Shown piece after piece: positions 976-4,971 of a stretch of DNA of 9,294 nucleotides. A program made the position numbers and the translations under genes. Origin of the DNA: a virus. Taxonomy: Duplodnaviria > Heunggongvirae > Uroviricota > Caudoviricetes. The stretch is taken from the IMG/VR virus record IMGVR_UViG_2531839179_000014; one strand, written 5' to 3'. Below the pieces are notes generated by a model. It searched no databases and was not told where the DNA came from. It saw nothing but the letters and a program-made list of their open reading frames with translations. Within the stretch, counting starts at the first letter, position 1. The number at the start of each line of letters is the position of its first letter.

Positions 976-1231
976 TTAGAATTTACTGTCAGCACCGGCG
1001 TTAAAGTTTACTTCTGCGATCCTCAGAGTCCTTGGCAGCGGGGAACAAATGAGAACACAAATGGGCTAATTCGGCAGTACTTTCCTAAAAAGACATGTCT
1101 TGCCCAATATACTCAACATGAACTAGATCTGGTTGCTGCTCAGCTAAACAACAGACCGAGAAAGACACTGAAGTTCAAAACACCGAAAGAGATAATTGAA
1201 AGGGGTGTTGCATTGACAGATTGAATCTACA
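965..1231 (+). mobile_element. IS30 3' remnant including the right terminus
   Basis: Transposase stop at 1222-1224 is followed by TTGAATCTACA ending at 1231, the reverse complement of the IS30 terminal TGTAGATTCAA. The 5' ~1 kb of IS30 is absent. Confidence 0.8.
979..1224 (+). pseudogene. insI: IS30 transposase C-terminal fragment (last ~80 codons)
   Basis: Translation EFTVSTGVKVYFCDPQSPWQRGTNENTNGLIRQYFPKKTCLAQYTQHELDLVAAQLNNRPRKTLKFKTPKEIIERGVALTD* matches the C-terminus of IS30 InsI as recalled. There is no start codon or N-terminal part; sequence upstream of ~975 is unrelated. Confidence 0.85.
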
Positions 1232-2127
1232 ACAGCGTATTTTGCACAGGAGTCGCTGAAAAATACGCGTTAATCGAACAATGGCGACAACAATTTCCCA
1301 TTGAAGCGATGTGTCAGGTATTTGGTGTATCCAGGAGCGGTTATTACAACTGGGTACAGCATGAACCCTCAGACAGAAAACAAAGTGATGAGCGGCTAAA
1401 ACTGGAGATTAAGGTGGCACATATCCGCACTCGCGAAACATATGGAACCCGGCGGCTCCAGACGGAGCTGGCAGAGAATGGCATCATCGTTGGTCGTGAC
1501 CGACTGGCACGTCTTCGTAAGGAGCTAAGGCTACGCTGTAAGCAGAAACGCAAGTTCAGAGCGACTACGAACCCGAACCACAATCTGCCAGTTGCGCCAA
1601 ATCTGTTGAACCAGACGTTCGCTCCTACAGCACCAAATCAGGTCTGGGTGGCGGACCTGACGTATGTTGCCACACAGGAGGGATGGTTGTACCTCGCTGG
1701 CATCAAAGATGTTTATACGTGCGAAATTGTCGGCTACGCCATGGGAGAGCGCATGACAAAAGAGCTGACAGGTAAAGCCCTGTTTATGGCGCTCAGGAGC
1801 CAGCGCCCACCTGCCGGGCTAATCCACCACTCTGATCGAGGTTCACAGTACTGCGCATACGATTACCGGGTCATACAGGAGCAGTTTGGTCTGAAAACAT
1901 CAATGTCGCGTAAAGGTAACTGTTACGACAACGCTCCGATGGAAAGCTTCTGGGGAACGCTGAAAAATGAGAGCCTGAGCCACTATCGTTTTAATAACCG
2001 GGATGAAGCCATCTCAGTAATACGGGAATACATTGAGATTTTCTACAATCGTCAGCGTCGTCACTCTCGTCTGGGGAATATCTCCCCGGCAGCCTTCAGG
2101 GAAAAATATCATCAGATGGCTGCTTAA
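1232..2127 (+). pseudogene. IS3-family OrfB (DDE integrase-core transposase), 5'-truncated by the IS30 insertion
   Basis: Reading frame is open from the IS30 stop through ORF 1309-2127. Motifs WVADLTYV, HSDRGSQY and MSRKGNCYDNAPMESFWGTLKNE (DDE catalytic residues) and a C-terminal YNRQRRHSRLG are present. No orfA upstream. Confidence 0.85.
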
Positions 2128-2170
2128 AAAAAGAACAAATGGTAGTGTCCGCTATTGCCAGTACACCTCA
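1232..2170 (+). mobile_element. IS3-family element, 3' portion only (orfA and the orfA/orfB frameshift window are missing); right end approximate
   Basis: Begins immediately after the IS30 right terminus. OrfB stops at 2127; a candidate terminus ...CCAGTACACCTCA ends near 2170 (IS3-family ends are TG...CA). The arrangement resembles the IS911-interrupted-by-IS30 configuration known in E. coli K-12, but identity to IS911 is not verified. Confidence 0.6.
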
Positions 2171-3577: not shown

Positions 3578-3587
3578 CCTTTCGGGC
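3578..3587. repeat. Left copy of the direct repeat CCTTTCGGGC flanking the IS10-like element (target-site duplication)
   Basis: The identical 10-mer occurs at 4890-4899 immediately outside the other terminus. IS10-group elements make 9-bp duplications. Confidence 0.75.
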
Positions 3588-4889
3588 CTGAGGGATCCCC
3601 ACAAAATTACTGCTAATAAACCAACACCATATTTCGGTAGGTTCTGGACAGATGGTTTAGAACTGTGCTCAGTACTGTTCGTCTTAAAATAAGTGGCGAG
3701 TGTCGAAGAACATTCTTCGCTAACGTCAGATATGAGATAACCCGCCGGGATTTAATGCTGTTAGCCTGATATTTCAGGTGTAACCCTTTATTTTCAGCGT
3801 GATAACCGAGTAACCACATTACGATAGTGCTCAACGTTGCCAGCAGACTCAGAACCAGAATTCTTCCTGTTGAACGACTTTTGCTGGCCCGAAGACCAAA
3901 TCCGAAGCGCCCGTTCTTTTCATCACGAAAGTTTTGCTCTATCTGCATTCGCCGACTGTATAACTTGATGATTTCTCGCGCTCTGAAGTCATTTGTACTG
4001 CTGAAGATCAACCAGGCTTCTTTTGCTGATTTGCTCTGTTCTTTGTCTGTTTTGTTTAAACCACTCTGACCTTTCGAACGTTTCTTTTTTCGCCCTTTTG
4101 CCGATTTCTTATAGGTGTAAAAATGCCCCCGGATGCTTTTTTTCCTTTCTTTAACCAGCCTTCCAGCCCCCATATATTCCGGTGTTTTACATTCAGGGCT
4201 ATCCGACACTTTTTAACCATCTTTCAGGCGCGTTATCGAGGCAATACTGAACGTTATTTCTGATCCGACCAATAAAATCCCAGCCCAGAGAAGTAATATG
4301 GTGAAACCATGCGCTCTGAAATCCAGCATCCGTGACAATAATAACCCTGGCATCGGGGGGCAGGGATTGAGCAAGGGAATCAAGGAAATCATGTTGTATC
4401 AATGGATTATTTTGTTTTTCAGAAGGAACAACCTTACTCAATAACGGAATGGAACGCCCGTCACACAGAAGGCTGGCACGAAGAACATGATGCTCCTGGG
4501 AGGGATAGCCACTCCAGTCTACGGCTATTACACATAAAGATAACTGCCGTGTCAGCATTGAAGTGATATTCCTGAAAATCATTGGAATATCGCGATGGAG
4601 CGCCTCATTACCCATGAGGCGATCAATACGTTTGCTCTTATTCTTAACTTGTGCATTACCCGGCAAAAAACGTCCGATACTGGTCAGCGTCAGAGATGCT
4701 CCGTTGATTAACACCACTGTGGCATCCATCAGGGCATTTTGTCGGTACTGATGAAATGGTGCTAAGGCATCCCGGAAGAAATTCTGACATACTTTATGAA
4801 CAGGCATAGCAGTGATCTCATTGAATTGTTGGCACAAATCAGTAGATCACATAATGCTATGTCTGTCTCGTTTTCTGGGAATTCCTCAG
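3588..4889 (-). mobile_element. IS10-like insertion sequence (IS4 family), ~1.3 kb, apparently complete
   Basis: Left end CTGAGGGATCCCCACAAAATTACTG (3588-3612) resembles the IS10 inside end as recalled; right end read on minus from 4889 is CTGAGGAATTCCCAGAAAACGAGAC. The two ends match at 17 of 22 positions. GATC sites sit in the left terminus (3594-3597) and near the transposase start (4814-4817, 4845-4848). Confidence 0.85.
3613..4837 (-). pseudogene. IS10-like transposase, split by a frameshift near the A5/T5 run at 4210-4214
   Basis: N-part (ORF 4199-4837) has KRIDRLMGNEALH, IAVDWSGY, VLRASLLCDGRSIP, VIIVTDAGFQSAWF, LGW. C-part (ORF 3613-4209) has the IS4-family YREK signature YSRRMQIEQNFRDEK. 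Both are collinear with IS10 transposase as recalled. The start may be TTG at 4837 or ATG at 4807. Confidence 0.8.
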
Positions 4890-4899
4890 CCTTTCGGGC
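4890..4899. repeat. Right copy of the direct repeat CCTTTCGGGC flanking the IS10-like element
   Basis: See left copy at 3578-3587. Confidence 0.75.
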
Positions 4900-4971
4900 G
4901 GCCTCCTGATGATTTGAGGGTGCAGGAATCCCTCCGGTTAAGGATTAAATTTTTAACAGTGCTAAATTTAA

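Follow-up and report, generated by a model that had tools for sequence, protein, structure and literature searches.

The IS4 family of insertion sequences is defined by the spacing of the DDE residues in the transposase, by a YREK signature and by a transposase encoded as a single ORF, and its IS10 subgroup is tabulated with a length of 1200-1350 bp, 5'-CT ends and a 9-bp direct repeat (De Palmenaer et al. 2008, PMC2266710). An IS10-type element (annotated ISVsa5) that we retrieved for direct comparison has the outside end CTGATGAATCCCC, the inside end CTGAGAGATCCCC, a 9-bp duplication and a start codon at bp 108. The target consensus of IS10 is NGCTNAGCN, and fold-back protection is known for both IS10 and IS50. 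Within the IS4 family, IS231A and IS186 prefer GC-rich dyads, GGG(N)5CCC and G4(N)6-7C4, and generate variable duplications, and in the IS3 family IS1397 and ISKpn1 insert into the loops of REP palindromes. The target specificity of IS231A is also cited in PMC2266710. The element that concerns us here belongs with ISSfl1, found on the Shigella flexneri virulence plasmids pWR100, pWR501 and pCP301.

The DNA that was analysed, which we call the window, is 9294 bp long and constitutes a whole contig of GCA_000211935.2, a draft assembly of Shigella dysenteriae 155-74 from 2011. Reading of the sequence, aided by a script, placed an element of 1302 bp at positions 3588-4889, with its transposase gene on the minus strand. 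It is very probably a recently inserted and ordinary copy of the catalogued ISSfl1 (IS4 family, IS10 subgroup), whose canonical length is 1301 bp. The assignment was made by comparison with copies that NCBI annotates as ISSfl1. An intact copy in E. coli FDAARGOS_943, annotated as "IS4-like element ISSfl1 family transposase" and carrying a single ORF of 397 aa, is 99.6% identical to the window element from end to end, and copies on Shigella virulence plasmids (e.g. pWR501 and pCP301) are 99.4-99.7% identical to it at the nucleotide level. Altogether, 66 plasmid records match at least 80% of the element length, the majority being Shigella virulence plasmids, and the span is 1301 bp in 39 of the 40 plasmid copies among the matches listed. 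Frameshift aside, the window transposase differs from the FDAARGOS_943 protein at two residues, which lies within the ISfinder rule for iso-forms (<2% divergence of the transposase amino-acid sequence, quoted in PMC2266710). With ISSfl1 of S. flexneri the window copy shares its terminal repeats and, the frameshift and two residues aside, the transposase of 397 aa; it differs in having a run of five rather than four T residues, in three private substitutions, seen in a six-way alignment, and in its location in a chromosomal prophage.

The same chromosomal prophage insertion was absent from 5426 complete E. coli genomes, a search of a phage collection with the element gave no match, and a scan of species-representative genomes yielded full-length matches of at most 78% identity, ISSfl1 itself not being among them. 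ISSfl1 is an element that is already known, in an ordinary setting, and this copy in itself matters little: it is one more in a Shigella genome already rich in such elements.

The likeness to IS10 extends to the ends of the element. The transposase-distal terminal inverted repeat (CTGAGGGATCCCC..., 3588-3610) carries a GATC at 3594-3597, which is bp 7-10 of the element, and corresponds to the inside end of IS10; the transposase-proximal repeat (4867-4889, reverse complement CTGAGGAATTCCC...) is the counterpart of the outside end. Both ends start with CTGAGG, and the left end, CTGAGGGATCCCCACAAAATTAC, agrees with the reverse-complemented right end, CTGAGGAATTCCCAGAAAACGAG, at 17 of 23 positions. 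At each end, the first 13 bp of ISSfl1 match the corresponding IS10 end at 12 positions. One of the three private substitutions falls within the right terminal repeat, at 4880, where the plus strand has A and the consensus G. This is position 10 of the end, and it is occupied by C in all 37 of the other proximal ends and all 38 distal ends, 75 other termini in total. ISSfl1 and IS10 further have in common a length of about 1.3 kb, CTGA..ATCCCC ends and a single-ORF DDE/YREK transposase, and the ISSfl1 transposase is 35-37% identical to those of IS10A and ISVsa5 over 91-94% of its length (E about 1e-56). With 1302 bp and CTGAGG ends, the window element has the size and the 5'-CT ends of the IS10 subgroup, and its exact 10-bp repeat is a duplication of about one helical turn, as in the IS4 family, rather than the 9-bp repeat of the subgroup. 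The 10-bp repeat departs from the tabulated value for the subgroup and not from homology to it. The first-pass annotation, made from the letters alone, had described an IS10-like element of the IS4 family with the same bounds and terminal inverted repeats. All of these were present, the element being ISSfl1, and to that description we add the minus-strand transposase, the canonical length and the private change at 4880.

The insertion lies between a gene for a 118-aa protein and a DUF7167 gene, both on the minus strand, in the order cro-like gene, ydaT, ydaU-like gene, ydaV, DUF977 gene, 118-aa gene, insertion, DUF7167 gene and small ORFs. The flanking genes belong to an operon for early replication, and the element has the same orientation. 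The host prophage is a degraded Rac-like lambdoid prophage of S. dysenteriae 155-74, a remnant that is also interrupted by IS600 (window positions 1230-2170) and by another transposase gene at the left end. It is plausible that the insertion affects transcription into the downstream genes.

The 10-mer CCTTTCGGGC occurs exactly twice in the 9294 bp, at 3578-3587 and at 4890-4899, each copy directly adjoining an end of the element; for any two positions fixed beforehand, such a match has a chance probability of about 1e-6. The insertion junction reads CCTTTCGGGCCTGAGGGATCCCC. We rebuilt the empty site by deleting the element together with one copy of the repeat, and used the result as a query; at least 80% of it was covered in 1225 E. 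coli genomes, and the aligned empty-site allele contained a single CCTTTCGGGC with identical adjoining sequence on both sides. At all 10 further loci listed when the DUF7167 protein served as query, the flanking genes are 93 bp apart. Insertion of the element with duplication of its target at 3578-4899 is therefore established, since related genomes have empty sites with a single 10-mer, and the earlier proposal of a recent transposition into an intergenic region, flanked by an exact 10-mer, was well founded. The comparison with empty sites that had been suggested as its check was the one just described, and different adjoining sequence around the single 10-mer, which would have spoken against a duplication, was not seen.

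The duplication is 10 bp long in the window, in FDAARGOS_943 and in contig 26 of S. dysenteriae 155-74, and 9 bp long in pWR501 and in an S. boydii plasmid. We also considered a 9-bp duplication accompanied by an extra base belonging to the element, and rejected it: such a base would have to vary, being C here and G in FDAARGOS_943, and the S. boydii plasmid has A after CCTCAG. By analogy with the IS10/IS50 family, the insertion would have followed cut-and-paste chemistry. The DDE transposase would cut the element from its donor and link it at both ends to a staggered cut of 10 bp. The middle of this cut would fall in the loop of a small GC-rich hairpin (CCGCCC-TTTC-GGGCGG), which is part of the 93 bp that separate the flanking genes, and repair of the stagger would then give the exact duplication of CCTTTCGGGC. 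This same hairpin is a module junction marker in related prophages.

The intact ISSfl1 transposase has every hallmark of its family. Its frame contains D97, D160 and E290, with spacers of 62 and 129 residues that fit D(60-110)D(100-150)E, and the Y-(2)-R-(3)-E-(6)-K signature is present as Y283, R286, E290 and K297 in YSRRMQIEQNFRDEK. Compared with curated family models, the unbroken protein reaches 362.8 bits for NCBIfam NF033591 transpos_IS4_2 (cut-off 152) and 67.1 bits for Pfam DDE_Tnp_1 (cut-off 23). The ORF is unsplit in all other copies; that of the window copy is broken by one base. The break, which the first-pass annotation had placed near a run of T residues, is located exactly at the T5 run at 4210-4214 (A5 on the coding strand), which is T4 in all intact copies. 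Pairwise and six-way alignments show it to be the sole indel relative to five other aligned copies, all with T4. The frameshift occurs at codon 200, between D160 and E290, and a stop follows four codons on, so that two ORFs of 202 and 198 aa replace the one of 397 aa. The N-terminal fragment (4199-4807, minus strand, ATG at 4807) has D97 and D160, and the C-terminal fragment, in the original frame (3613-4209, minus strand), encodes the YSRRMQIEQNFRDEK region and with it Y283-R286-E290-K297. If the frameshift is real, this copy is dead, since its active site would lack the part that holds E290 and the YREK signature.

We lean, on balance, towards a homopolymer-length error of the 2011 draft assembly as the source of the extra T, and place it slightly ahead of a genuine slip. 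The 202-aa truncated protein is on record solely on contig AFFZ01000059.1 of GCA_000211935.2. The 198-aa C-terminal fragment has also been called on contig 26 of S. dysenteriae 155-74 and on contig 59 of S. boydii 5216-82, whose draft (GCA_000211975.2) has an accession series adjacent to that of the 155-74 draft. All three ISSfl1 copies retrieved from these two drafts carry a ±1 homopolymer indel, a different one in each (A5 vs A4; C5 and C7 vs C6), whereas the three aligned copies that come from complete records are all unbroken. On the right of the element, two complete genomes match the window at 99.4-99.5% identity, and the window departs from them by exactly two indels, T7 vs T6 at about 7044 and T5 vs T6 at about 7651, and each of these breaks a gene that is intact in the complete genomes. 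The indels of the draft copies, together with these two neighbouring T-run indels, lead us to rate an artefact and a later slip as nearly equal. The literature we found does not state the sequencing platform used for strain 155-74, which may have been 454. The frameshifted transposase gene and its two neighbouring "pseudogenes" may all be homopolymer errors of the draft, and they should not be counted as decay without the reads.

Nearly as credible, although it falls a little short of an even chance in our judgement, is a genuine frameshift, in which ISSfl1 was intact on insertion and gained a T afterwards by replication slippage, leaving a decaying, non-autonomous copy. The three private substitutions indicate that the window copy has genuinely diverged, and one of them, at an otherwise invariant position of the terminal repeat, points to divergence after insertion. 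Decay would also be in keeping with the surroundings, as neighbouring prophage genes are broken and other insertion sequences cut the prophage, and the flanks have indels and substitutions in a ratio of 2:18, as neutral decay would yield. Moreover, a 5.3-kb housekeeping control on another contig of the same assembly, compared with E. coli LHM10-1, had 39 substitutions and one indel, an intergenic change in a G-run, with no indel in coding sequence; its genes are intact, although this control does not decide between an assembly-wide error and a slip. Longer runs in the window copy (A7, A6, T6 and C6) are correct, and a miscall of A4 as A5 would be atypical. Against a slip, however, all six indels in about 13.6 kb of the two drafts are ±1 homopolymer changes, each retrieved draft copy of ISSfl1 is broken differently, including by +1 and by -1 at one and the same C6 run, and the T5 allele is confined to one draft assembly. 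A sister strain with the same insertion was sought: the YdaV protein of this contig was found in no other assembly, and the DUF7167 protein proved too widespread to be of use, all 10 of its loci listed being empty sites.

The first-pass annotation had offered sequencing error or mobilisation in trans as the two ways to reconcile an intact duplication with a broken transposase. Error is indeed a live explanation, given the homopolymer indels of the drafts, whereas mobilisation in trans is disfavoured, and a frameshift arising after insertion had been omitted. We regard it as very unlikely that the copy was frameshifted before insertion and mobilised by the transposase of another ISSfl1 copy. 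The exact 10-bp duplication does attest to a clean transposition event, and the same genome holds at least one other ISSfl1 copy. However, an intact duplication is silent on when the frameshift arose, and there is no need to invoke mobilisation in trans, since target-site duplications persist indefinitely and a frameshift can follow insertion. T5 was found in none of five further aligned copies and none of the 40 plasmid copies listed (1300-1301 bp), which argues against a defective lineage that spreads; the one further copy retrieved from this genome is apparently frameshifted as well; and the right terminal repeat of the window copy is changed at a position invariant in 75 other termini. IS10 transposase, moreover, is generally known to act preferentially in cis. 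Production of the transposase by programmed ribosomal or transcriptional slippage, as in IS1 or IS3, for which the position of the break within an A-run (UUAAAAAG on the mRNA) might speak, can be dismissed, as it would need a +1 shift on just five A residues with a stop four codons later, the ORF is uninterrupted in all other copies and in at least 30 relatives down to about 40% identity, and IS4-family transposases are encoded by single ORFs (PMC2266710).

To place the regulatory sequences of ISSfl1 in context, we collected 38 elements of its clade, from many enterobacterial genera, the most distant of their transposases being about 40% identical to that of ISSfl1 in amino acids. GATC occurs in the window element at 3594, 4006, 4262, 4621, 4814 and 4845. 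Enrichment was considered and rejected, with six sites observed against 5.2 expected in 1322 bp; as the count is at chance level, only the positions of the sites carry meaning. Those at 4814 and 4845 precede the transposase start codon (ATG at 4807) by 7 and 38 nt. The distal-end GATC is present in all 38 relatives and a proximal-end GATC in five of them. Likewise conserved in 38 of 38 is T[GA]TGATC, which precedes the start codon by about 40 nt and shares the register of the TATGAT+C of IS10; in the window this corresponds to the hexamer TGTGAT at 4846-4851 on the minus strand, overlapped by the GATC at 4845-4848. The site at 4814-4817, which is shared by most, though not every one, of the 38 relatives, lies in the 3' arm of an inner stem. 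Sites in the left terminus and near the transposase start had been reported at the outset, and are those at 3594, 4814 and 4845; the parallel with Dam control in IS10 is stronger than could be known at that stage, because those at 3594 and 4845 are kept in 38 of 38 relatives.

In IS10, TATGAT is the -10 hexamer of pIN, the promoter of the transposase gene, and from its sequence and position the -10-like hexamer at 4846-4851 would be part of the transposase promoter of ISSfl1. A simple consensus scan for promoters and terminators found no promoter at the 5' end of the transposase gene and none facing outward; it did return one weak terminator-like site inside the element.

The segment just upstream of the hexamer is complementary to the region of the start codon, in ISSfl1 as in IS10. 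In the window, the 5' arm of this fold-back stem is at 4855-4865 and the 3' arm at 4801-4811, both on the minus strand, the latter spanning the start codon at 4805-4807. RNAalifold, applied to 21 distinct 5' regions, gave a stem of 10 pairs between element positions 25-35 and 79-89, with 95.7% of cells paired and compensatory changes in seven of the 10 pairs. None of 500 shuffles scored as high, and no slid register was as good. The window RNA itself folds with -28.6 kcal/mol (z = -6.0). As the -10-like hexamer is located downstream of the 5' arm, the stem would form only in transcripts that read through from outside the element, where it would sequester the start codon. Such protection would matter here because the element is oriented as is the early operon of the prophage.

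The layout of these sequences and its conservation are as described; we infer from them that ISSfl1 is regulated by Dam methylation and by fold-back, the latter through an effect on translation. Dam sites in the distal end and over the -10-like hexamer keep the layout of IS10, with which ISSfl1 shares a terminal GATC that is confined to the transposase-distal end, at bp 7-10, and another that overlaps a T(A/G)TGAT hexamer preceding the start codon. The two differ in the position of the start codon, which is at bp 83 in ISSfl1 and bp 108 in IS10. In addition, ISSfl1 has no match in this region to RNA-OUT, the antisense RNA of IS10, or to another Rfam family, either at the gathering threshold or at E values up to 10, the only hits being chance ones to microRNAs; a divergent antisense RNA may nevertheless be present. 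Dam sites and a covarying fold-back stem that are conserved across a broad enterobacterial clade are, like the preference of that clade for GC-rich hairpin loops, of modest value for the biology of insertion sequences.

Target choice in the clade was seen from 23 insertions with exact duplications, of 10 bp in 14 cases, 9 bp in eight and 11 bp in one. Of the 23 sites, 16 fall on the loop of a perfect hairpin whose stem has 4 bp or more, as do 3.7% of control positions. The reconstructed empty sites also fold more stably, with -14.2 kcal/mol where flank windows have -8.8 kcal/mol (p = 1.4e-6). Across these 23 genomic sites, the pattern of insertion into hairpin loops is statistically clear. It may reflect recognition of sequence (CCC-N4-GGG) or of DNA structure. 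IS10 differs in both respects, having a fixed 9-bp duplication and its own target consensus where the ISSfl1 copy has a 10-bp duplication (9-11 bp in the clade) and a GC-rich hairpin loop. We would suggest, as a tentative reading that may well prove wrong, that the ISSfl1 clade has specialised in the apices of short GC-rich stem-loops, many of them terminators, mostly with a stagger of 10 and not 9 bp, a behaviour that would be undescribed for the IS10 subgroup and of which the window hairpin would be one instance. In the literature searched, there was no relevant account of IS4-family elements that target hairpins or terminators.

As the dyad preferences of IS231A and IS186 are known, targeting in the ISSfl1 clade would be a variation on a known theme. 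Like the ISSfl1 clade, these elements use short GC-rich dyads flanked by A/T tracts and give a variable duplication of about one helical turn; they belong to other subgroups, however, with 5'-CA ends and unrelated terminal sequences, and the preference of the ISSfl1 clade is drawn from 23 genomic sites and not from an assay. IS1397 and ISKpn1 resemble the clade in that they, too, insert around the loop of a hairpin between genes, but their transposases are of an unrelated family, their duplications are of 3-4 bp and they are specific for REP/BIME sequences, whereas the targets of the ISSfl1 clade are generic GC-rich stem-loops, often terminator-like, and not REP/BIME. A preference for hairpin loops would tend to place copies at intergenic, terminator-like spots, where they do little harm. 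Several of the clade targets are themselves terminator-like, with an A-tract, a stem and a T-tract.

The insertion point of ISSfl1-clade elements, collected from enterobacterial genomes, is typically the apex of a GC-rich hairpin, as seen in the window (3578-3587 / 4890-4905) and across the genomic loci fetched for comparison (L024-L101). Such a hairpin lay under the insertion at 16 of 23 clade sites, compared with 3.7% of control positions, and reconstructed empty sites folded more strongly than flank windows (p = 1.4e-6). The target hairpins are often terminator-like, and the majority of the target duplications are 10 bp. We found no description of hairpin-apex targeting by the ISSfl1 clade in the searchable literature.

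The hairpin used as target in the window, CCGCCCTTTCGGGCGG, also occurs as a single copy in related prophages of E. coli FDAARGOS_943 and FDAARGOS_944 (L002, positions 1495-1520, and L007), where, unlike in the window, another module carrying QueH and hokD lies to its left. The hairpin thus sits where mosaic modules of lambdoid prophages meet. Five clade loci (L031, L048, L054, L083 and L088) are flanked by two unlike half-hairpins without a matching duplication, which is the pattern that recombination between copies at separate hairpins would be expected to leave. A distinct clade member, with 63% amino-acid identity to ISSfl1, was seen in the chromosome of S. flexneri SFBU1023 and in that of E. 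coli ECMA0423 (L055/L056); it is located in a CTCCC-TTTx-GGGAG hairpin, and the two copies of its duplication do not match exactly (CCTTTTAGG versus CCTTTCGGGG). The actinobacterial assembly of Microbacterium tenebrionis also contains, on tiny contigs of 1.3-1.5 kb (L034, L046), an ISSfl1 relative of enterobacterial type with 69-72% amino-acid identity; contamination seems a better explanation for it than genuine presence.

The copy in the window carries a private substitution at 4880, end position 10 of the transposase-proximal terminal repeat, a position at which no variation was seen among 75 other termini compared. Alternatively, the change could be a paired homopolymer miscall, since the + strand here reads GGGA-A in place of GGGG-A. 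Two further single-base changes lie in T-runs, with T7 versus T6 at ~7044 and T5 versus T6 at ~7651 relative to complete-genome relatives that are 99.4-99.5% identical, and the genes they truncate are a ydaU-like replication gene and ydaT. Whether they reflect homopolymer errors or genuine decay is the same question that the transposase frameshift poses. At ~3139, the window has T8 versus T6 in the empty-site locus of E. coli O9:H10; the small ORF containing this run is itself annotated as frameshifted in that genome.

The prophage in the window is a remnant, and its contig bears other insertion sequences at its edge or inside: a transposase with Pfam DDE_3 and HTH_23/28/29 domains at the left end (1-875), and an IS600 copy (1230-2170) that is 99.8% identical to one in FDAARGOS_943. 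Adjoining the IS600 copy, on the - strand at 2127-2229, are Rfam matches to two phage antisense/Hfq-binding RNA families, c4-a1b1 at 52.9 bits and isrK at 52.4 bits, both over the gathering score.
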